DNA of 64,000 nt from positions 8,778 through 72,777 of the forward strand of contig JAUYKA010000035.1 of assembly GCA_030698495.1 (NCBI GenBank), written 5' to 3'. Numbering within the stretch: position 1 is the stretch's first letter; every line of letters starts with the position of its first letter. Both the position numbers and the translations under genes were made by a program. The notes under the pieces are model-generated. The model was not told the origin of the DNA and searched no databases. It saw only the letters and a program-made list of their open reading frames with translations. Source of the stretch: a bacterium (GTDB lineage Bacteria > Patescibacteriota > Andersenbacteria > UBA10190). Of this stretch, positions 13,618 through 52,353 are shown in pieces.

Positions 13618-14482
13618 ATTTCCATCATAACCCGGTTACGGTCTTCTGTGCAGTTCCACTGTCGAGAGTAGTGAGAAGCGTAGGAGGGGTTGCTTCGCAC
13701 CACAAGCTCGCCAGCGGAACCGCCAAGAACACTCATTACCAGCTTTTCAACCTAGCACATGCGCCTGGTAAGTCAAGAATAGTCTGGTGTTTGTCACGAA
13801 CCCCACTTCGCTCTCACTGAAGCTCGAGCTTCCAGCCTTCGCACAAGGCTTCGGCCGGCGCGGCGAGGGGTTATCCCCCTTCGCTAAAGCTTCGGAGGGA
13901 CAGGTATTTTCGCTCAAAATGCGTGGCTCACCTTCGGTGAGCTCACTTATTTTGGCGAAAATATAAAAAAAAGACCCGTTGGCGCCTGAAGCTGCCACAC
14001 AAACCCTCGAGTTCAGACATGCTGATCTTTGAGGTTTCGCGGCAAGCCATCCACGGCGCCAAGCGGGTCGGGTAACGCCACTCCTCCGAGTGGCATCGAC
14101 CCTGGGCGTATGCTTCTACGGTATAGATAATAGCATCTCTTTACTGCACACACCCAAGAAAGAATGTCCTGCCCCGGGCTTTTCTATAACAGGCAAACCT
14201 GCCTAGTTAAAGCCCGGAAACAGGACAGATCGATTGAAGGAGGAGGAACGTCTGTTCGTTCCTTCTCTTCCTCTTCTCTGATCGTATGAGTAAACCTTTA
14301 CTCATACTCTCTCCTCCTTTCAATCTAGAGAACTGCTACGCCCAGAGGTCAGTTACCCTCTTTGAAAGGACTGTTTCCCATGACAGGCTCCCTTCCCAAA
14401 AAGAGTAACGGATCACCAGCTGTCTGCCTAAACAAACAGACCACCCCAATCAAGAAGTGGTGCCTACAATATATCAATGCTT
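13618..14482. other. An 865 nt non-coding gap between the TrmB-like regulator and pth that is unusually rich in stable hairpins. It is a candidate structured RNA locus of unidentified class.
   Basis: Multiple GC stems with UUCG-type loops are present (gcttcggc, cttcggag, ccttcggtg). A long hairpin gtcctgccccgggcttt...aaagcccggaaacaggac is present. A 14 bp-stem purine-rich palindrome gattgaaggaggag...ctcctcctttcaatc is present. No convincing protein ORF was found. RNase P, tmRNA and SRP consensus motifs could not be matched by eye. Confidence 0.4.
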
Positions 14483-18387: not shown

Positions 18388-18454
18388 CAAAAAATTATTT
18401 TGTAATTTTGGATTGTCATTTTGATTTTTGCATTTTAAATTTTGAATTAACGAA

Positions 18455-21715: not shown

Positions 21716-21729
21716 AGTATTTGGTCATT

Positions 21730-21772
21730 GGAAAATTGAAGAATTGATTGGAAATTGGAAATTGAAAATTTG
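21730..21772. repeat. GGAAA(A)TTG-type tandem repeats (ggaaaattg, gaagaattg, ggaaatt, ggaaattg, gaaaatttg) between convergent topA and parB
   Basis: Seen directly in sequence. It is the same motif family as 8755-8794. Confidence 0.65.
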
Positions 21773-24138: not shown

Positions 24139-24225
24139 GCCGGGATGGCGGAATTGGTTTACGCGCACGACTCAAAATCGTGTGAGCTTACGCTCGTGTG
24201 GGTTCGAGTCCCACTCCCGGCACCA
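24139..24225 (+). tRNA. tRNA-Leu (anticodon CAA), type II with a long variable arm and an encoded CCA
   Basis: The acceptor stem GCCGGGA/TCCCGGC is present. The anticodon loop is cuCAAaa. The T-arm GGTTCGAGTCC is present. A possible TTGGCA-17-TACAGT promoter lies just upstream. Confidence 0.9.
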
Positions 24226-24230
24226 CAAAT

Positions 24231-24872
24231 ATGATCAAAGCAATTTTATTTGACGTCGACGGAGTATTAATAGACTCCTTTGAAGCAAATTTAAGGTTTT
24301 TTCAAGACTTAATGAATAAAGTTGGTTACCCTCCGCCAACCAGAGATCAATTTCATGATATTTTTGCCATGAACCTTGTTGATGCTATCAAAACTCTTAC
24401 TAAATCAAATTCCGAAGAAGAAATTCAGCGCATATGGCATACAGGAAAAAACAGAGAAGTTAATTATCATACAGAACTAATTAACATTCCCAATGAATTA
24501 GAAATTGCGCTCAAACAACTAAGCAAAGATTTTTTATTGGGTATCGTTACCAGCCGCGTCCGAGAAAATATCTACGAAGCCCCTTCTTTAAAAGAACTTA
24601 AACATTATTTCAAAATTGCAGTCGGCTATCAGGATACAAACAACCATAAACCGGATCCTGACCCGTTATTATTTGCTGCTAAAAAGTTAAAAATCAAACC
24701 GGAGGAATGCATATACATAGGCGACACTTCAAACGATCTGCAGGCAGGCCATGCTGCAAACATGAAGGTTATAATCTATCCCAATAATAAAAACCTTCCC
24801 GCCGACGCTCACGCCGCATCCTTTACTGAATTACCAACACTGATATCGTCTTTAAACAAAGAAACGCGATAA
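24231..24872 (+). CDS. HAD-superfamily hydrolase (beta-phosphoglucomutase/phosphatase-like)
   Basis: Motif I FDVDGVL is present. The ATG at 24231 is in frame within ORF-track entry 24198-24872. The track start overlaps the tRNA. Confidence 0.75.
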   Translation: MIKAILFDVDGVLIDSFEANLRFFQDLMNKVGYPPPTRDQFHDIFAMNLVDAIKTLTKSNSEEEIQRIWHTGKNREVNYHTELINIPNELEIALKQLSKDFLLGIVTSRVRENIYEAPSLKELKHYFKIAVGYQDTNNHKPDPDPLLFAAKKLKIKPEECIYIGDTSNDLQAGHAANMKVIIYPNNKNLPADAHAASFTELPTLISSLNKETR

Positions 24873-24942: not shown

Positions 24943-26151
24943 CTACAACGCCCGATAAAACAACGCCATCACTCCCGCCAACGCGAAGGTAACCACAAAT
25001 GCCGTTTGCATCGGCAGGAAGAAAAAGACCGCCGCCAGCGCCGCCGCCATCACTACCTTGCCGCAGGCCAACGAAATTTCAAACGCCAGCATATAACGTA
25101 GCGACCCAACCCGTCGCGCCTTGGCGTACAACCGCGACATCGTCGGTACCTCCATACTTGTATCACTCACCCGCGCTAATATGTCCGCCGGTAAAATCAT
25201 TGCCACGGAATGCGATAATATTCGCAAAATATAACTAGCCGCAATAAACGGTGCCGCCCAGCGCAACACTACCCGGGGTGTCTTTCTGTCCGCCAGTTCT
25301 CCTACAAAAAATCCCCACAGCACCATTACCGCCACACTCAACGACACTACCAATCCCAGCAACTCCGCACTGCGCAAAATAATAAACATATAGATCGGCC
25401 AGAAAACCATATAAACCAAGTTCTCCATCCATCCTGCCGATGCCGCCAGTACCATGCGTCGGTTTGCCCGTTGGCGGATAACTTGCCACCCCGCGCTATA
25501 AGACATCTCTCGACGTTGTTGATTTTCCTTCGTAGTCAAAAGCGGCAAACCGGCTAGCACCAGAGTAACCGCCGCTACTATGAACAGCGCAGCAAAACCA
25601 AACCACACTACAATAAATCCTCCTAGTAGGGGACCAATTATACCTACCCCGTAAACAATAATCCTCTGCCATGACTGCTCGGTACCCCTGTTATCCGAGT
25701 TACTATAAGCCGCGAAAGTAGCATGATAAGCTGGCCAGAAAAATATCTTGTGCGCCGCCAGAACAAAAGGCCCCAGCCAAAATAACTGCCAAAACTCCGT
25801 GACACCGGACAAAATCAGAAAATACACCACCAGTATAGGCGTGGAAACGGCCAATGACCGCTCGTACCCGAATCTCGCCGCTAGCTTCGCGCCCCACGGC
25901 AGAGCAACTACATAGACCACATAATGTGTCAGGTAATATATCGCTATTAGCCACAGCTTGAATCCTTGGCTGTAAAAAAATATTGGTTCGAAAATTGTGA
26001 TCAGCGAAGAAGCAAAAGAAAAAAGCAGTAAAAACAAATATAACTCGCGTATTTGTCGCCGGGCTTTAAACCCAAACACGCTGCGTAAATCGCCTAACGT
26101 AATATGCAATTGTCCCAACATGTGATTATTATACATTATCGTTAACCACAA
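24943..26151 (-). CDS. Polytopic membrane transporter, MFS-like
   Basis: The protein has about 12 predicted hydrophobic helices and is 402 aa. No strong signature motif was seen. Confidence 0.5.
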   Translation of the reverse strand: MWLTIMYNNHMLGQLHITLGDLRSVFGFKARRQIRELYLFLLLFSFASSLITIFEPIFFYSQGFKLWLIAIYYLTHYVVYVVALPWGAKLAARFGYERSLAVSTPILVVYFLILSGVTEFWQLFWLGPFVLAAHKIFFWPAYHATFAAYSNSDNRGTEQSWQRIIVYGVGIIGPLLGGFIVVWFGFAALFIVAAVTLVLAGLPLLTTKENQQRREMSYSAGWQVIRQRANRRMVLAASAGWMENLVYMVFWPIYMFIILRSAELLGLVVSLSVAVMVLWGFFVGELADRKTPRVVLRWAAPFIAASYILRILSHSVAMILPADILARVSDTSMEVPTMSRLYAKARRVGSLRYMLAFEISLACGKVVMAAALAAVFFFLPMQTAFVVTFALAGVMALFYRAL

Positions 26152-26230
26152 GTTACGAGTTCCGAGTTACAAGTTATAAGCTACAAGATAATATTTGCCA
26201 AACATCACCTTTTTCTAGTATGTTATTTTT

Positions 26231-27550
26231 ATGAATAAGCCCGCAAAAAATCAGCATAAATTAGCCTTCATCGGCGCCGGTTATGTCGGTCTTGTTTCCG
26301 GCACCTGTCTGGCTGAAATCGGCCACACCGTCATTTTAGTCGACAACAACAAAGATAAAATCACTCGCCTTAATAAAGGTCAGATACCTATTTTTGAACC
26401 AGGCCTGGACGAGCTGGTAACCAAAAACGTCAAAGCAGGACGCTTGTCGTTTACCACCAGTCTCAAGGACGCTGTTAAAAATTCCGAGGCAATTTTCATC
26501 GCCGTTAACACCCCGCCTCTACCCAACGGTCGAGCCGATCTCTCTTTCGTAGCTGGTGCCGCCCGTGAAATCGCCGAGGCCGCCGACGGCTACAAAGTCG
26601 TTGTCGATAAAAGCACCGTCCCCGTACAAACCGGCGAGAGAGTGGCCGAAACAATCAAGCGCTACAATAAACGGCAAATTGATTTCGATGTTGTCAGTAA
26701 TCCCGAGTTTTTACGCGAAGGCTCCGCTATTGACGACTTTCTCCAACCCGATCGTATCGTTGTCGGCGTAGCCAACAAACGCGCCGAAAAAATCATGCGT
26801 GAAATATACTCGCCTATCGATGCTCCTTTTATTGTCACCGATGTTAAAAGCGCCGAACTGATCAAACACGCCAGTAATTCTTTCTTAGCCACTAAAATAT
26901 CTTTTGCCAACGCCGTCGCCAGAATTTGCGAACTATCCGGCGCCAACATTGATCAGGTAGTCGGCGGCATGGGACAAGACGCGCGCATCGGTAAACATTT
27001 CTTAAACGCCGGCATCGGCTATGGCGGCTCGTGTTTTCCTAAAGACGTATCTGCTTTTATCAATATCGCTGACGAGCTTGGCTACCATTTCGGCATCTTA
27101 AAAGAAGTGGAAAAAATAAATGAGCAAGCCAAACAACTTTTCTTGCAGAAAATCGAACAGGCTTTATGGGTTACTAAAGGCAAAACCATCGCTATGTGGG
27201 GCTTGGCCTTTAAGCCTAACACCGACGACATGCGCAACGCCCCTTCCATCGACATCGTTAATCAACTACACGCCGACGGCGCCGTTATTCAGGCCTACGA
27301 TCCCGCAGCTCAAGACACAGCCAAAGCTGTTTTAGGCAATAAAGTAAAATATATTAAAGACAAATACGATGCTCTGAAAAATGCCGACGCGCTGGTTATT
27401 GTCACCGACTGGAATGAATTCAAAGATCCGGATTGGAATAAAGTCGCCAAGCTTCTTCACAGTCCCATCATTATTGATGGCCGCAATATGTTCGACCCCA
27501 AAGAGATGGAAAAGAAAGGTTTTGTCTACCACTCGGTCGGCCGCGGCTAG
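26231..27550 (+). CDS. ugd: UDP-glucose 6-dehydrogenase
   Basis: The N-terminal NAD fold FIGAGYVG is present. The catalytic Cys region GYGGSCFPKD is present. The protein is 439 aa. Confidence 0.9.
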   Translation: MNKPAKNQHKLAFIGAGYVGLVSGTCLAEIGHTVILVDNNKDKITRLNKGQIPIFEPGLDELVTKNVKAGRLSFTTSLKDAVKNSEAIFIAVNTPPLPNGRADLSFVAGAAREIAEAADGYKVVVDKSTVPVQTGERVAETIKRYNKRQIDFDVVSNPEFLREGSAIDDFLQPDRIVVGVANKRAEKIMREIYSPIDAPFIVTDVKSAELIKHASNSFLATKISFANAVARICELSGANIDQVVGGMGQDARIGKHFLNAGIGYGGSCFPKDVSAFINIADELGYHFGILKEVEKINEQAKQLFLQKIEQALWVTKGKTIAMWGLAFKPNTDDMRNAPSIDIVNQLHADGAVIQAYDPAAQDTAKAVLGNKVKYIKDKYDALKNADALVIVTDWNEFKDPDWNKVAKLLHSPIIIDGRNMFDPKEMEKKGFVYHSVGRG

Positions 27551-27634
27551 AGCAGTAAATACAGTGAATACAGTAAATTAAGTAAATACAGTTACTGTAT
27601 TTACTGTACTCGCTGTATTTACTTTATTTACTGA
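27551..27634. repeat. Inverted array of GTAAATACAG/CTGTATTTAC tandem repeats forming a hairpin with about 40 bp arms between convergent ugd and the nucleotidyltransferase gene
   Basis: agtaaatacagtgaatacagtaaattaagtaaatacag is followed by its imperfect reverse complement ctgtatttactgtactcgctgtatttactttatttactg. Confidence 0.7.
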
Positions 27635-28311
27635 CTCAACACTCTCTCCGCCTCTTCTAACTGCTCCTTGTCATTAATTGGCAACCAAAAGTCAGTTTCC
27701 ACGACTTTAATTTTTGCCCCATTTTCCTGAATCATTTTCATCCACACATCCGGTGTCTCGTACTCCCCGCGCGCCGACGGCGGCACTTCCAAATCCAAAA
27801 ACGACTCATCCATCACCATTGCTCCTGTCCACACTAAATTGGAAATAAACTCCTGCGGTTTTTCCACCGACCGCACTAAATACCCCTCATCATCAGCTAC
27901 CAGCACCCCAAATTTTTCTGGGTGTTCCACCCTGTCCGCCAACGCCGCTAAGTCATGCCGCACTAATTCCTGCATTCCTTTCGGACCAAATATGTCATCC
28001 CCAACCATCCCCAACCATCTTCCAGTCACCAATTCTCTGGCGCACCGAAAAGCATGCGCCAGTCCCAACTGCTCTTCTTGGCGTACAAATTCAATCGGCC
28101 GGCCGTCATGTTCACCGCTCTTAAAATAATCCCGTATTGTCTGCTCGTGCGGCCCGCCGACCACAAACACCAAGCCATCCACTTCCGGTGGCAATAAATC
28201 CAAACTATGCTCAATCACCGGCTTATCGCCAACCGGCAATAATTGCTTTGGGCCTTCGTAATATTTGGCCATCCTTGTACCCTTCCCGGCCACCAAAACC
28301 ACTGCTTTCAT
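27628..28311 (-). CDS. Sugar-1-phosphate nucleotidyltransferase (NTP_transferase fold)
   Basis: The N-terminal GxGTR motif (LVAGKGTRM) is present. Confidence 0.75.
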   Translation of the reverse strand: MKAVVLVAGKGTRMAKYYEGPKQLLPVGDKPVIEHSLDLLPPEVDGLVFVVGGPHEQTIRDYFKSGEHDGRPIEFVRQEEQLGLAHAFRCARELVTGRWLGMVGDDIFGPKGMQELVRHDLAALADRVEHPEKFGVLVADDEGYLVRSVEKPQEFISNLVWTGAMVMDESFLDLEVPPSARGEYETPDVWMKMIQENGAKIKVVETDFWLPINDKEQLEEAERVLSQ

Positions 28312-28317
28312 AGCTTT

Positions 28318-28436
28318 GTATTTAGTATTTAGTATTCCGTATATAGTATATTACAAAAATGTTGTCCACAAGAGTTATGACAAAAAAATCAACGATGCTA
28401 AATACTATATACAAAATACGAAATACTAAATACTAG
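28318..28436. repeat. Large inverted repeat with about 35 bp arms built from TATTTAG heptamers and a 44 nt spacer
   Basis: gtatttagtatttagtattccgtatatagtatatt pairs with agtatttagtatttcgtattttgtatatagtatttagc (the reverse complement of 28397-28436). It lies between the FG-GAP protein stop and the nucleotidyltransferase start. Confidence 0.7.
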
Positions 28437-31888: not shown

Positions 31889-31929
31889 ATACCTGCATAT
31901 TAGCAGGAAAACACCTTTTAAATCTACAA

Positions 31930-32015
31930 AAGCTACGTATCTACAAACTTACATTGGTAGAGTAGTTTTGTATATTTGTAGCTTTGTACATTTGTAGATC
32001 TGCAGATTTGTAATC
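31930..32015. repeat. Inverted array of TTTGTAG(A/C)T / ATCTACAAA repeats between the FG-GAP gene start and the leuS stop
   Basis: aaatctacaaaagctacgtatctacaaac ... gtatatttgtagctttgtacatttgtagatctgcagatttg is seen in sequence. Coordinates are uncertain by about 1 nt. Confidence 0.6.
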
Positions 32016-34444: not shown

Positions 34445-34512
34445 GTTTATAGCCTAAATCCAACCCACCCAAATTACCAGACAAGTCAACCAACATTATT
34501 GCTTTTTCATAA

Positions 34513-34676
34513 GCGAGAGGCACTTTTCGCGGCACCTACTTCCGGCAACGCACTTGCCCCGTCCAGCGACGGGACTGCGCTCGACTAAAAGCCTGCCGCT
34601 CCGCCTTTTAAGGCGGAGACCATGCCGGCAAGCTTTTAGACGGTTGCCGGAAGTAGGCACCGCGAGTGCCGCTCGC
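34513..34676. repeat. Palindromic element copy C. It is inverted relative to copies A and B.
   Basis: Its reverse complement aligns with copy A through ccgtct(a/g)aa(a/g)gcttg(c/t)cggcatggtc(t/c)ccgcc ... gtcgagcgcag(t/c)ccg...gggcaagtg. The outer imperfect stem is gcgagaggcac...gtgccgctcgc. Confidence 0.7.
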
Positions 34677-34746
34677 CACGAAAGTCCATGTAGAATAGGC
34701 TAACAATAGCCATTCTATCCTGATGAAACTCATATTAAGTTTTGTC

Positions 34747-34782
34747 ATTCCGGAATTTTGCCAAGGGCAAAATATCCGGAAT
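34747..34782. repeat. Short hairpin related to the element core (attccggaattttgcc-aag-ggcaaaatatccggaat)
   Basis: It has the same X-TTTTGCC-n-GGCAAAA-X' architecture as the central hairpin of copies A and B. Confidence 0.5.
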
Positions 34783-34818
34783 CCAAGCGGAAATTCAACG
34801 CTCTAGTATAACGCACCA

Positions 34819-34997
34819 GCAAGCGACGCCACGACTTTTGCTCTTGGCGACCGTCTGAAGGCTTGTCGGCATGGTCCCCGCCGTTATTTTGCCGCGGCAA
34901 AATAACGGCGGGGCGACAAAACTTCAGTCGAGCGCAGCCCGCCCGCAGGGGGCGGGCAAGTGTGTCGTCCAAGAGTGAAAGTTGTGGCGCCGCTTGC
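34819..34997. repeat. Palindromic element copy A (179 nt), ending 12 nt from the rarA stop
   Basis: The roughly 33 bp imperfect outer stem has G-T/T-G wobbles. The core is gaccgtctgaagg...ggtccccgcc-gttattttgccgcggcaaaataac-ggcgggg...cttcagtcgagcgcag-cccgcccgcagggggcgggc-aagtgtgtcg. Confidence 0.75.
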
Positions 34998-35008
34998 TAA
35001 TTAAAATT

Positions 35009-37119: not shown

Positions 37120-37132
37120 AAGCGCCTCCCAC

Positions 37133-37156
37133 TAGCCCACCCGGGCTAGTTTTCTT
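37133..37156 (+). terminator. Intrinsic terminator
   Basis: ctagccc-acc-gggctag is followed by ttttctt. Confidence 0.6.
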
Positions 37157-38004: not shown

Positions 38005-38174
38005 TGTTTTATGTAATTATAAATACATAATCAAATAACTTTAACCCCATTAACCTCTCAATATAAGCCCCCCACTACTAGCTACTTACTGCTTACTACT
38101 TTTAACTAAAACGCTTTATATTAACATGAGACACAATTATCTTTGTTATTATCTCTAACCTATAATTTCAACCA

Positions 38175-38621
38175 ATGCTTTCCGCCGTCCACACTGTAAC
38201 TAGTCTCCCCTTCGCCATCTATCTCGGTAACATCCCGGCAATTCTCATCGCTGCTTTTCTGTGGCATTTTTTGGCCGACTCAATTCTGCATTGGAATATA
38301 GATCCCAACAAACCGGACTCTTATCCTTACTTCTTTGTCAGTCTGGATGTCATTGGCGGACTAGTCGTAGCCTACTTTCTCCTTGGTCCCGCTATGTTCA
38401 CCCCCCGCTTTCTGGCCGCTATTATCGGCGGCAACCTGCCGGATGTCATCCACACCGTCTGGTACTTACTACCACCAAACAAGCGCCAACACTGGTTCGG
38501 CTGGGCCAAATGGTGGTTTGATTTTCACCACCGCGTCCAAAACGAAACCAAAAATATACTTGCCGGACTAGCTACTCAAGCCTTGGCTGTAATCACTGCA
38601 ATTTATCTCATCCTTAAGTAA
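38175..38621 (+). CDS. Hypothetical polytopic membrane protein (148 aa)
   Basis: It has four hydrophobic segments. No known motif was seen. Confidence 0.45.
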   Translation: MLSAVHTVTSLPFAIYLGNIPAILIAAFLWHFLADSILHWNIDPNKPDSYPYFFVSLDVIGGLVVAYFLLGPAMFTPRFLAAIIGGNLPDVIHTVWYLLPPNKRQHWFGWAKWWFDFHHRVQNETKNILAGLATQALAVITAIYLILK

Positions 38622-38665
38622 ACACAGGTCTGTATTTACTTTATTTACTGTGTTCTGTATTTACT
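38618..38665. repeat. CTGTATTTAC-family repeats with a flanking hairpin (gtaaacacag...ctgtgtt) between convergent genes
   Basis: gtaaacacaggtctgtatttactttatttactgtgttctgtatttactatact is the same unit as at 27551-27634. Confidence 0.6.
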
Positions 38666-38669
38666 ATAC

Positions 38670-39716
38670 TCACCCCGGCAGCTCTTCCGTGTTATTCTTA
38701 GCAACAAATATATCCGCCAATAAAATACTGATAACCGTAGCAATCGGCACCGACAATATAATTCCCACCACTCCGGCTAAACGCGCGCCCAATAAAATTC
38801 CGACTATCGTCACCAACGGATGCAAACCGATTGCTTTCCTCATGATATTAGGCACCAGCACATGCGCTTCAAATTGCTGAATAATAATATACATAGCCAG
38901 CACCACCAACCCCATCACCCAAGACATGGTGAACCCAACAGCAACCCCGGGAATAGCCGCCAATACCGGGCCAATATACGGCACAACCTCCAAAATTCCG
39001 GCAATCAACCCCAGCAACAAAGCGTATGGCACACCCAAAATCCAAAGACCAGTCCCTACCAGCAATCCGATAATTATTCCCAACGACACTTGCGCCAACA
39101 CCCATTTCCCCACTTTTTGCTGCGCCCGGTCAATTGCTCTTTCCGCGTAAGCCACGTGCATTGCCGGCGTCACCAGCCGTACAAATTTTTTCAAAGCTTC
39201 GCGCTCCACCACCAAATAAAACGTTAGCACAAACACAAACACTACCGTGAAAACCCCCGAAACAAATGTTCTAGTCTGCTGAAATATATTCACGCCTAAA
39301 TTCGCCAGATTGTCTCCGAATCTGCTTATCCCCGTCTGCAAATAACCCACGACTGCCGCCCGATCCACTTCCGGCACAAAAGTTATAAAACGATGCGCCA
39401 CTTGTATTATCGAAGGAACCGCTTGCGCTAGTTGCTGACTCTGTGTAACTAACGGCTCAACCATCAAAGACAACACCCCGGCCAATAATGCCAATACCAT
39501 TATATATATCAACGCCACCGAAATCATCCGCGGGATACGCCGCTGCTGCAGCCAATTAACCACCGGCTCAATCGCCGTCGCCAGCACCACCGCCGCAAAT
39601 AACATTAATAAAATATCGAAAATCAGATACAAAAACCATGCTCCGATCAGAATAATAATCACCCGGAAAATCGTCCCCGAGGTTATATCTATACTCATTC
39701 TGTTTCCGTTACCCAT
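38670..39716 (-). CDS. AI-2E family (PerM/UPF0118) membrane transporter
   Basis: The protein is 348 aa with about 8 TM helices and the characteristic long hydrophilic loop. Confidence 0.6.
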   Translation of the reverse strand: MGNGNRMSIDITSGTIFRVIIILIGAWFLYLIFDILLMLFAAVVLATAIEPVVNWLQQRRIPRMISVALIYIMVLALLAGVLSLMVEPLVTQSQQLAQAVPSIIQVAHRFITFVPEVDRAAVVGYLQTGISRFGDNLANLGVNIFQQTRTFVSGVFTVVFVFVLTFYLVVEREALKKFVRLVTPAMHVAYAERAIDRAQQKVGKWVLAQVSLGIIIGLLVGTGLWILGVPYALLLGLIAGILEVVPYIGPVLAAIPGVAVGFTMSWVMGLVVLAMYIIIQQFEAHVLVPNIMRKAIGLHPLVTIVGILLGARLAGVVGIILSVPIATVISILLADIFVAKNNTEELPG

Positions 39717-41013: not shown

Positions 41014-41137
41014 TTAATTTTCAATTTTCAATTTCCATTGAATTATCAATGACGCAATTTTCAAACACTAAAACTTTTCATCGTTGTGCTTGGAAATTGA
41101 TAATTGATTATTATATGGAAATTGGAAATTGGAAATT
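41014..41137. repeat. GGAAATTG-family repeat arrays in both orientations. These are aattttcaattttcaatttcc at 41014-41036 and ggaaattg at 41092, then three tandem ggaaatt units at 41117-41137 that overlap the glyQS stop codon.
   Basis: Seen directly in sequence. It fills the glyQS-M16 peptidase intergenic region. ORF-track entry 41104-41328 over it is judged spurious. Confidence 0.7.
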
Positions 41138-42518
41138 ATATCGACAGTTTATCTGTTAAATATCCACCAACCTTGTCTATATTAATCCTCTCCTGCTCCA
41201 TACTATCCCTCTCTCTCACTGTCACCTGCTTATCTTCCAAGGAGTCAAAATCAACCGTTACGCAATACGGCGTGCCAATTTCATCCTGGCGCCGATACCG
41301 CTTGCCGATTGATTGCGTCTCATCGTAATCAACGCGCAGACTTTTTGCCAATTCATCAGCCAACGGCTCGGCCAGCTTTATAAGTTCCGGCTTCTTCGAC
41401 AAAGGCAGTACTGCCACCTGATACGGCGCCAAATTTGGTTTCAGCTTTAGCACTACCCGCTTATCTCCCTTAACTTCTTCCTCGTAGTAAGCATCCATCA
41501 ACACAAATAATACCAGCCGCGACAAACCGAATGTCGGTTCAATCACATGCGGATAAAATTTTTCTCCCGTTTTTGTATCCGTCACCTGCAGATCCTGACC
41601 CGTAGCCTGCGCGTGATTCTTCAAATCGTAATCGGCACGATAAGCCAGCCCGAACATTTCTTTACTGCCCCAAGACGACGCATACTCAATATCCACCGTC
41701 CGTCTGGAATAATGCGCCCGTTCTTCAGTCGCCTGCTCCCGCAAACGCAAGTTTTCTTTTTTGATCCCCACTTCCTCCGTCACCCATTTTTGCATCTCCC
41801 CAAGCCACATCTCAAAATACTTCTCCCAATCAGCTTCTCTCACAAAATACTCAAACTCCATCAAATCGAACTCCAGCGTGCGGAAAATAAAATTACCCGG
41901 CGTGATTTCATTGCGAAACGCCTTGCCGACTTGCGCTATGCCAAACGGTAAGGATTTCCGCATTGAATCCATAATCAATTTAAAATCTACAAACATCGAT
42001 TGCGCCAGCTCCCCCCGCAAATAAACAATCTGTTTATTACTTTCAACCGTTCCCAACGAAGTCTCAAACAGTAAGTTGAATTGACGCGCTTCGGTAAAAT
42101 CATGTTTACCACAATTCGGACAGACAATATTGTTATCAGCGCTAATTAAAACGGACATTTCCTCTATCGTCATCGCGTCCGTATTCCTATCAGGCAATAT
42201 GTTCTTTATCAGATCGTCCGCCCGCCAGCGATTATGGCAGGACTTACAATCCACCATCGGGTCGTTAAAATTATCAACGTGATGCGAAGCTTTCCACACT
42301 TCCGGATTCATTAAAATCGCCGCGTCCAAACCAACCATATCCCGCCGGCTCTCCACAAAATACTTCCACCAGGCATCCCGCAAATTATTTTTTAACTGCA
42401 CTCCCAACGGACCGAAATCCCACGAATTGCGCAACCCGCCGTAAATCGCCGACCCCGGATACACAAACCCGCGTCTTTTGCATAACTCAACTATTTTTTC
42501 CAGAGAAACTTTTTCCAT
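41136..42518 (-). CDS. glyQS: Glycyl-tRNA synthetase, single-chain (alpha2) type
   Basis: The N-terminus VELCKRRGFVYPGSAIYGG is present. Class II motifs are present. The protein is 460 aa. Confidence 0.9.
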   Translation of the reverse strand: MEKVSLEKIVELCKRRGFVYPGSAIYGGLRNSWDFGPLGVQLKNNLRDAWWKYFVESRRDMVGLDAAILMNPEVWKASHHVDNFNDPMVDCKSCHNRWRADDLIKNILPDRNTDAMTIEEMSVLISADNNIVCPNCGKHDFTEARQFNLLFETSLGTVESNKQIVYLRGELAQSMFVDFKLIMDSMRKSLPFGIAQVGKAFRNEITPGNFIFRTLEFDLMEFEYFVREADWEKYFEMWLGEMQKWVTEEVGIKKENLRLREQATEERAHYSRRTVDIEYASSWGSKEMFGLAYRADYDLKNHAQATGQDLQVTDTKTGEKFYPHVIEPTFGLSRLVLFVLMDAYYEEEVKGDKRVVLKLKPNLAPYQVAVLPLSKKPELIKLAEPLADELAKSLRVDYDETQSIGKRYRRQDEIGTPYCVTVDFDSLEDKQVTVRERDSMEQERINIDKVGGYLTDKLSI

Positions 42519-45491: not shown

Positions 45492-45505
45492 CCCCCCGAG
45501 CAACC

Positions 45506-45546
45506 CCGCGCGAGACCTCAAAAAGTCTCCGCGGGTTTTTCTTTTT
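45506..45546 (+). terminator. Intrinsic terminator
   Basis: ccgcgcgagac-ctcaaaaa-gtctccgcgg is followed by gtttttcttttt. Confidence 0.7.
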
Positions 45547-49218: not shown

Positions 49219-49345
49219 CGAGTATCAACATTCTTGAAGAGTAAAAGGTAAAACCAAAAATGTAAAACAACAATGCAAAATTTAAAGTATCTTTTGCGTT
49301 TTGAGTTGTTGTTTTAAGTTTTTCGTTTGACCCTTTACGTTTTCG

Positions 49346-52183: not shown

Positions 52184-52353
52184 AAAAATTTTCTAATCTT
52201 CTGCTCTTAGCGACCGTCTGAAGGACTGCCAGCCTGGTCCCCGCCTAAATTTTGCCGCGGCAAAATTTAGGCGGGGTGGCAGGCCTTCAGCCGAGTAACG
52301 CCCGCGCTGGGGCGGGCGTTATGTGTCGCTAAGAGCAGAAGATTAGAAAATTT
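52184..52353. repeat. Palindromic element copy B (170 nt), ending 6 nt from the ileS stop
   Basis: A perfect 29 bp outer stem (aaaaattttctaatcttctgctcttagcgac / gtcgctaagagcagaagattagaaaattt) encloses the same core as copy A. The core reads ccgtctgaagg..ggtccccgcc-taaattttgccgcggcaaaattta-ggcggggt..ccttcagccgag..cgcccgcgctggggcgggcg..gtgtcg. Confidence 0.75.

Follow-up and report, generated by a model that had tools for sequence, protein, structure and literature searches.

In an uncultured, groundwater-type member of Candidatus Andersenbacteria, a lineage of the candidate phyla radiation (CPR, or Patescibacteria), the convergent genes for UDP-glucose 6-dehydrogenase (ugd) and an NTP-transferase are separated, from stop to stop, by an 81-bp imperfect palindrome composed of 9-nt units, which we call site 1. 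It occupies positions 27553-27633 of the window, by which we mean the whole 64,000-nt stretch of DNA that was analysed (GC content 48.9%) and whose numbering is used here. Tandem Repeats Finder resolves it into two arrays of period 9, with 4.4 copies of CAGTAAATA at 27553-27592 followed, at 27592-27633, by 4.7 copies of the reverse complement of this unit; as an inverted repeat, it has arms of 40 nt that are 83% complementary and separated by 1 nt. The 10-mer GTAAATACAG, with at most one mismatch, has 15 matches in the window, where 2.9 are expected and none of 100 shuffles gets to 15.

Folded as RNA, site 1 forms a single hairpin with a 3-nt loop and a stem of about 36 pairs. Its energy is -41.6 kcal/mol on the plus strand (z = -7.76) and -39.2 kcal/mol on the minus strand (z = -6.5), and on neither strand did any of 200 shuffles equal the fold; with DNA parameters the values are -22.9 kcal/mol and z = -7.6. 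Read directly, both strands have an A-rich 5' arm and a U-rich 3' arm. The outermost unit of the right arm takes in the end of the minus-strand NTP-transferase gene, its final CAG codon and its TAA stop (27628-27633). The protein of this gene is 76% identical to an ortholog in an alignment that reaches the last residue. The first-pass annotation of this DNA had described direct units followed by inverted ones, forming a hairpin with arms of about 40 bp and almost no loop that overlaps the end of the minus-strand gene, and had named ugd and a nucleotidyltransferase gene as its neighbours; gene and domain assignment agrees on the neighbours, and the hairpin proves slightly larger than described.

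Further copies of the 9-mer and their gene junctions

A second group of units (site 2) stands between the convergent stop codons of a conserved hypothetical gene and an AI-2E family transporter gene, with GTAAACACAG at 38618 and CTGTATTTAC-type units at 38630, 38639 and 38655, and an exact 21-mer, CTGTATTTACTTTATTTACTG, is common to site 2 and the right arm of site 1. The same annotation had seen the unit recur here within a flanking stem. The recurring units and their position between convergent stops stand, but there is no significant hairpin: the RNA folds reach only -9.5 and -12.8 kcal/mol (z = -0.27 and -0.71), other estimates give z of about -2, and the DNA fold gives z = -1.4.

Extending the genome to 81 kb, that is, the window plus both flanks, we searched for a degenerate two-unit pattern of the family, ([CA]AG[TC][AG]A[AG][TG]N)x2, and obtained 10 matches against 0.06 expected, confined to three loci. 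The third copy (L168:4571-4641), 2.5 kb to the left of the window, fills the 70-nt stop-to-stop gap of another convergent pair, a DUF4147/MOFRL-domain gene and comEC. The fold energies of this copy are -34.7 and -40.4 kcal/mol (z = -7.8 and -5.6, respectively), its GC-richer variant units CGAGG and CCUCG pair together, and the TAG at L168 4570-4572 overlaps its first repeat unit. All three loci lie at convergent junctions, which make up 12 of the 72 junctions in these 81 kb (P = 0.0037), in a test that is small, partly post hoc, and becomes three of four once the related heptamer array at 28.3 kb is admitted to the family. Within this genome, over the 81 kb, the 9-mer family is specific to convergent junctions, and the link to such junctions drawn in the first-pass annotation holds for this family. 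A canonical terminator is absent from all three junctions.

The repeat units themselves provide stop codons, as CAG TAA in the NTP-transferase gene, as AAG TAA in the hypothetical gene of site 2 and through the overlapping TAG at the third copy. A 9-nt unit with TAA holds the frame and the stop at any unit number, which may explain the stop-to-stop placement of the family.

The same junctions in related genomes

Seven relatives, with ugd 78-85% identical, retain the gene order, and the repeats are found in none of them. At the ugd/NTP-transferase junction, five of the seven have a hairpin with A-tract, GC stem and U-tract (Table 1) and in the other two the genes abut or overlap; at the junction of site 2, the relatives' genes overlap and leave no spacer. 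AT-rich arrays number 12 in the window and none across 25 spacers of four relatives. The absence of the repeats from the relatives, together with their position at a bidirectional terminator that has been kept elsewhere, marks the site 1 element as a recent, lineage-specific gain, and from this comparison of sequences it probably replaces the canonical bidirectional terminator retained by most relatives. Generic terminators with a GC stem and U-tract also occur in this genome, as had been noted before, with examples at 37131-37150 and 45505-45545; the simple scanner that we used overlooked terminators recognized by eye at 45.5 kb, which folding confirms, and at 21.7 kb, which was read by eye only.

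Other short-unit arrays in the window

Site 1 is part of a lineage-specific population of AT-rich arrays of 7-9-nt units that occupy many spacers of this genome. Many spacers of the window have a GC content of 18-32% and are composed of degenerate tandem arrays of such units, and by type of spacer AT-rich arrays are present in 4 of 18 co-directional, 2 of 8 convergent and 2 of 7 divergent ones (Table 1). Four co-directional palindromes (28.3, 32.0, 41.0 and 49.3 kb) extend from the stop of one gene nearly to the start of the next, the first of them from the stop of an FG-GAP gene to 6 nt short of the NTP-transferase ATG, and the NTP-transferase gene has a GTATTTA-core repeat hairpin on either side. 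An array closely resembling the one at 18397-18448 is present in an unrelated CPR contig (L065). The strong array-built AT-rich hairpins of the window stand at convergent or co-directional junctions, with none at divergent ones, and no convincing -35/-10 pair was found on the right strand in the loops of the co-directional hairpins.

Since palindromes made from other 7-8-nt units stand at co-directional junctions, AT-rich hairpins built of repeats are no mark of convergence and are not of one sequence. The suggestion that site 1 represents a sequence-specific class of element therefore fails: equally strong palindromes made of GTATTTA, GTAGATTT and GGAAATT/GAAAATT units are found at co-directional junctions of the window, and palindromes of the 9-mer itself are co-directional in other CPR genomes.

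Table 1. Genes, repeat arrays and canonical hairpins discussed in the text (window positions, or contig of the relative).
Feature	Position	Strand	Remarks
ugd (UDP-glucose 6-dehydrogenase)	26231-27550	+	upstream convergent gene of site 1; three UDPG_MGDP_dh domains; protein 100% identical to an NCBI entry named Candidatus Andersenbacteria; stop 27548-27550
NTP-transferase gene	27628-28311	-	other convergent gene of site 1; stop 27628-27630
Left arm, site 1	27553-27592		units CAGTAAATA, CAGTGAATA, CAGTAAATT, AAGTAAATA, CAGT (4.4 units)
Right arm, site 1	27594-27633		4.7 reverse-complement units of CTGTATTTA type
GC-richer variant unit CTGTACTCG	27603-27611	+	produces the 6x6 internal loop of the site 1 hairpin
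Conserved hypothetical gene	38175-38621	+	upstream convergent gene of site 2; 45% identical ortholog at the same position in L042
AI-2E family transporter gene	38670-39716	-	other convergent gene of site 2; gene/domain assignment
Single inverted unit of site 2, (AA)GTAAACACAG	38618-38627	+	AAG TAA (38616-38621) is last codon and stop of the plus-strand gene
Mostly direct array of site 2	38630-38672	+	CTGTATTTA CTTTATTTA CTGTGTT CTGTATTTA CTATACTCA
(GTATTTA)4.6, about 50 nt, (TAAATAC)5.4	28318-28435	-	co-directional; -42 kcal/mol, z -6.5; GTATTTA core as in the 9-mer
Inverted 8-mer GTAGATTT arrays, 6.4 copies	31920-32001	-	co-directional; z -3.4 to -4.1
Inverted GGAAATT/GAAAATT arrays	41015-41138	-	co-directional; -37.4 kcal/mol, z -6.9
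Long AT-rich imperfect palindrome	49241-49338	-	co-directional; -32.7 kcal/mol, z -6.0
ATTTTGA array, 7.4 copies	18397-18448	+	direct only; fills spacer up to the dprA start codon; no hairpin
AGTTACG heptamer array, 3.7 copies	26151-26176		direct only; divergent spacer; no hairpin
ACTACTT heptamer array, 4 copies	38074-38101		direct only; divergent spacer; no hairpin
Further direct array	21727-21770		direct only; not folding
Canonical hairpin, ugd/NTP-transferase junction	L040		AAAAAAGCCCATTAAGGGCTTTTT
Canonical hairpin, ugd/NTP-transferase junction	L044		AAATACCGCCCTTAACAGGGCGGTATTT
Canonical hairpin, ugd/NTP-transferase junction	L047		AAAAAATCGCACTTAGGTAAGTGCGATTTTTT
Canonical hairpin, ugd/NTP-transferase junction	L172		AAAAAAAGCCTCTCAAGGGCTTTTTT
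Two canonical hairpins, ugd/NTP-transferase junction	L171		read by eye from the sequence

A possible role at the 3' ends of convergent transcripts

The reading that we favour, with a probability of about 45%, is that these are short-repeat arrays grown by slippage which serve as long, AU-rich hairpins at the 3' ends of transcripts coming from both sides. Replication slippage, which also produces other intergenic short tandem repeats, would have multiplied a short unit, and mirroring of the array would then have given the second arm. A transcript entering site 1 from either side would carry first the A-rich 5' arm and next the U-rich 3' arm (CUGUAUUUA units, with 5 U of 9), which could pair into the hairpin of about 36 pairs, and to judge by its position this hairpin may create the 3' ends of the two convergent mRNAs or shield them. 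It could act as a bidirectional terminator of a 'zipper' type that does without a U-tract, or as a 3' stabiliser, or possibly as a site for RNase III, and would have taken over from the canonical terminator of the relatives. We infer that the A-rich and U-rich arms imitate, on a larger scale, the way in which bidirectional terminators use an A-tract and a U-tract.

Between convergent genes, bidirectional intrinsic (Rho-independent) terminators combine an A-tract with a GC-rich hairpin and a U-tract and are read on both strands, as reported, for example, in the full-length RNA profiling of Ju, Li and Liu (2019). Site 1 resembles such terminators in its stop-to-stop location between convergent genes, in a symmetric hairpin available on both strands, in the A-rich 5' and U-rich 3' sides of that hairpin, and in holding the place that they hold in the relatives. 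The positional part of the resemblance, with folding from both strands between convergent stops, extends to the third copy. Unlike them, site 1 has a stem of about 36 pairs instead of 5-14 and a GC content of 27% instead of a GC-rich stem, is built of 9-nt tandem units with internal loops and lacks a discrete U-tract.

Several observations weigh against a role as a two-way hairpin at 3' ends. A scan for consensus terminators gave no match at 27551-27634 or at 38618-38672. A canonical stem has about 5-14 bp with at least three G-C pairs and a loop of 3-8 nt, of which site 1 matches only the loop, and with its GC content of 27% the stem falls outside the canonical definition of a terminator. A tract of at least five U in the 8 nt just 3' of the stem is missing on both strands, where the stem is followed by AACACUCU (plus strand, 2 U in 8 nt) and CUAGCCGC (minus strand, about 1 U). 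The arms of site 1 have mismatches with no compensation, which leave its internal loop, and site 2 has no significant hairpin, its sole inverted repeat being 12 nt long. Hairpins at co-directional junctions have no excess of stability on the sense strand (5 of 13), so that selection at the RNA level leaves no signature. In other CPR contigs, palindromes of the 9-mer are mostly co-directional and often stop 7-13 nt ahead of the next ATG, which is a poor place for a full terminator. To this must be added the small number of loci behind the junction test. The idea of a bidirectional terminator or insulator, already put forward in the first-pass annotation, keeps its support from position, stop to stop and at the site of the relatives' terminator, from which the proposed role is drawn, but finds none in the sequence after the stem.

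Much of this could also be expected if the arrays were a non-adaptive by-product, in which slippage-grown repeats in AT-rich spacers give rise to palindromes via template switching and have no role in transcription. Their absence from all seven relatives indicates that the arrays are young and dispensable; they have many unit sequences and periods and occur in every junction type; about half are direct-only and without a hairpin, and site 2 likewise has none; the uncompensated mismatches and the lack of sense-strand bias point in the same direction. Two strains, described below, have different array families at one orthologous spacer, tandem CTGTATTTA arises too in unrelated phyla and giant viruses, and sporadic, lineage-patchy repeats of 5-11 nt, with heptamers as the commonest, have already been described (PMC4679880). 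A by-product, however, would not be expected to fall at convergent junctions in three of three cases with a precise stop-to-stop fit, to stand in for a terminator kept by five of seven relatives, to have one copy that is identical in two strains with flanks about 10% apart, or to reappear in distant CPR lineages with the same unit variants (AGTAAATNN together with ...CTCG units). We regard this origin as the main rival to the reading that we favour, though as rather unlikely.

We know of no experimental work on how transcription units end in CPR bacteria. If the palindrome does terminate or process transcripts, slippage repeats can rapidly build hairpin terminators without a U-tract, and part of the patchily distributed intergenic short-repeat arrays of bacteria gains a function. 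If it is functionless, it provides a clean case of fast spacer turnover in reduced genomes, and a warning against taking every palindrome between convergent genes for a terminator.

The symmetry of these elements is also a property of the DNA, and the arrays could be binding sites for a cooperative protein, or boundaries or insulators that form a cruciform. Stability is equal on both strands, with no sense bias; the units are contiguous, keep fixed positions ([CA]AG..A..) across genomes and occur in coexisting direct and inverted arrays; and the patchy distribution would fit the transfer of a binding protein, an idea raised for the TAACTGA repeats (PMC4679880). Against such an element, unit sequences vary between spacers, so that many proteins would be needed, a convergent stop-to-stop gap has no promoter to be regulated, no candidate protein was identified, and periods of 7-9 bp are out of helical phase.

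Arrays of this general kind include heptad or iteron arrays for ribbon-helix-helix proteins (omega of pSM19035, ParR/parC, ParG) and hexamer arrays for Fur. The likeness to the ribbon-helix-helix arrays lies in unbroken runs of 7-11-bp units, direct and inverted; those arrays are found at plasmid promoters and centromeres, with one unit per protein, whereas the present ones are chromosomal, lie between stops and have many units. On balance, we consider an element acting at the DNA level to be improbable.

Unit number in other assemblies

The region is represented in other assemblies. Over 13.5 kb the window is matched by a contig of GCA_034372665.1, with 3 mismatches that all fall within the FG-GAP gene; the NCBI contig (L001) covers the arrays on either side of the NTP-transferase gene and does not differ from the window there; and Logan contigs of SRR13727534 match the window with zero mismatches, one of them (L002) ending at 27582, inside the left arm of site 1. 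Assemblies commonly end at palindromes, and such palindromes probably fragment CPR assemblies and are under-represented in metagenome-assembled genomes (MAGs). The unit number is the same in the three assemblies of the region, all of which may derive from one sample.

A constant unit number argues against the arrays being phase-variation (contingency) repeats, in which changes in unit number would tune flanking envelope and glycan genes (ugd, the NTP-transferase gene and the gene of the FG-GAP surface protein), although the two contigs that bear on it, one identical and the other ending in the left arm, could come from a single sample. The neighbours are indeed related to the envelope, the NTP-transferase gene has one array 6 nt before its ATG and another over its stop, and short tandem repeats are the classic substrate of phase variation (PMC4679880). 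Yet a 9-nt unit with its own stop codon cannot shift the frame, and arrays also lie beside housekeeping genes (leuS, dprA, peptidase genes), and we find this explanation scarcely credible.

Occurrence in other genomes

A scan for the exact pattern in one genome per species returned 37 loci, mostly unrelated, such as coding repeats or lone arrays in Xenorhabdus, Ferruginibacter, Blastocatellia and others. A metagenome scan gave at least 120 loci; among the matches listed, 62 of 120 fall in long open frames and about ten are spacer palindromes of the 9-mer type. Coding repeats account for about half of the metagenome matches listed and for many of those in the genome scan. At the sites of the window a coding repeat was ruled out, these being spacers between genes whose orthologs align to the last residues. 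Viral contigs have 8 matches, mainly in AT-rich giant-virus bins and with plain direct arrays, and a phage origin was rejected on these grounds.

In other CPR genomes, arrays are present in 7 of 11 and 17 of 30 spacers in two sets. Twelve copies from ten distant CPR contigs each form one long hairpin broken by symmetric internal loops, in which GC-richer ...CTCG units, similar to CTGTACTCG of site 1, stand opposite A-rich units as they do at site 1. In a MAG labelled Candidatus Saccharibacteria (CAZVEC01), four contigs have the architecture of site 1, with 6-28 arrays per 10 kb, and one copy matches site 1 at 79.5% over 83 nt; the FtsZ of this MAG is only 59% identical to that of the window. 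A rule of polarity, by which the arm that is 3' with respect to the flanking genes would always contain the ...CTCG units, holds in several contigs and was discarded because L069, L095 and L165 break it.

Two strains about 87% identical (L061 and L065; flanking genes about 87-92%) have one copy that is 100% identical. Between them unit number is equal at two spacers and the array family differs at a third, where CTTGCCTCG/CTTGATTTA 9-mers in L061 (1-78) correspond, in the orthologous L065 spacer (reverse strand), to ATTTTGN heptamers resembling those at 18397-18448 of the window. Array families therefore seem to be interchangeable at one position.

A further element was noted within CAZVEC01, where three spacers of one contig (L020 943-1153, 1688-1789 and 6829-7105) have in common an element of about 100 nt with inverted AGTATTTA/AGTAACTA arrays around a conserved centre, aagactaatgcatttatattattcatctta, so that the whole palindrome, including its loop, is dispersed. 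In Prevotella, inverted CAGTAAATA-type arrays surround a GC-rich palindrome, gcgcgtaccgcgtgcgcgcggtacgcgc, with near-identical copies in L008 and L022 of one MAG and a copy in L038 of another; this is a dispersed Bacteroidota element with the CAGTAAATA 9-mer in its arms.

A distribution of this kind would be compatible with a small mobile palindrome, similar to miniature inverted-repeat transposable elements (MITEs) or repetitive extragenic palindromes (REPs), that inserts at gene junctions and has spread horizontally among CPR bacteria. The 21-mer common to sites 1 and 2, the Saccharibacteria match despite so distant an FtsZ, the absence from close relatives, whose site 2 genes overlap, and the several copies per contig elsewhere in CPR could all be explained in this way. 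On direct reading, however, the three sites have no terminal inverted repeats other than the array itself and are not bordered by a target-site duplication, unit number and order are different in every copy, the internal periodicity is unlike that of mobile palindromes, and the gene lists contain no transposase among the genes adjoining the copies (the window was not scanned for RAYT-type genes). A mobile origin is, in our opinion, very improbable.

It is also conceivable, if clearly unlikely, that in some CPR lineages palindromes of 7-9-nt units constitute a distinct, horizontally patchy gene-boundary system, with unit families (AGTAAATNN/...CTCG and ATTTTGN) common to distant lineages, which would have displaced canonical terminators in its host genomes and act as two-way terminators or processing sites independent of a U-tract, or be read by a transferable binding protein.

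Comparison with known repeats

Head-to-tail units of 5-11 nt, above chance and mainly in spacers, define the intergenic short tandem repeats, to which site 1 belongs with its 4.4 and 4.7 copies. As presented in one review, these comprise the LSSR of Mrazek et al. 2007, the STRR heptamers of cyanobacteria and the TAACTGA repeats of Beggiatoaceae, Cyanobacteria and Bacteroidetes (PMC4679880). In these repeats one unit can recur in distant lineages while close relatives lack it, and many lie just upstream of start codons with their role unexplained; the Beggiatoa genome has 169 direct sets and one indirect repeat (PMC4679880). The arrays described here are like these repeats in their tandem 7-9-nt units in spacers, in their patchy distribution and in the many arrays just before starts. 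They differ in that many are paired inverted arrays, forming palindromes of 70-120 nt, where the published ones are nearly all direct, and in that one unit family is restricted to convergent junctions in this genome. We found no description in the literature of such spacer repeats or terminator elements in CPR bacteria, and the present elements are set apart from the described repeats by pairing as palindromes, by lying stop to stop and by replacing a canonical terminator.

REPs and the bacterial interspersed mosaic elements (BIMEs) are dispersed copies of one conserved sequence of about 35 nt with a GTAG head, associated with RAYT (IS200/IS605-like) transposases in enterobacteria and pseudomonads, and REPs are thought to stabilise upstream mRNA or to attenuate read-through. 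Like them, the arrays include imperfect palindromes in spacers downstream of genes and not in divergent promoter regions; unlike the members of the site 1 family, which are periodic and variable from copy to copy, REPs have no internal periodicity and a single conserved sequence. Identity with REP/BIME was rejected in view of copies that vary in unit number and order, the lack of a GTAG head and a total of three loci in 81 kb, and identity with a MITE in view of the lack of terminal inverted repeats or a duplicated flank at any of the three sites.

Neither site matches Rfam 15, whose sole match in the window at the gathering score is a tRNA. Clustered regularly interspaced short palindromic repeats (CRISPR) were ruled out on anatomy. 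An integron attC was excluded, as there are no RYYYAAC...GTTRRRY core sites and the neighbours are housekeeping genes that are syntenic in all seven relatives, and so was a LexA box (CTGT-N8-ACAG), whose half-sites stand, by direct reading, in the opposite order (ACAG...CTGT).

Additional observations

Long palindromic spacer elements of another type, GC-rich (about 51-53%) and unrelated to the AT-rich arrays, occur at 52186-52353, 34835-34957 and 34527-34665. The 52.2-kb element is complementary to itself along about 165 nt and has the centre ggtccccgcc..ttttgccg|cggcaaaa..ggcgggg, and a copy 77% identical to it lies with an inverted partner within a 564-nt spacer (34445-35008); there is no Rfam match, and these palindromes look like a dispersed structured repeat or an RNA of no Rfam family. 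Two other stretches without an Rfam match, one of 484 nt that is gene-free and of normal GC content (13999-14482) and a 129-nt spacer whose minus strand folds at -60 kcal/mol with z = -6.9 (13618-13746), may be undescribed RNAs or leaders. A tRNA-Leu(CAA) gene (24139-24225) overlaps the first codons of the longest HAD-hydrolase open reading frame (24198-24872); the public call for this gene begins at 24231, and the overlap therefore disappears.

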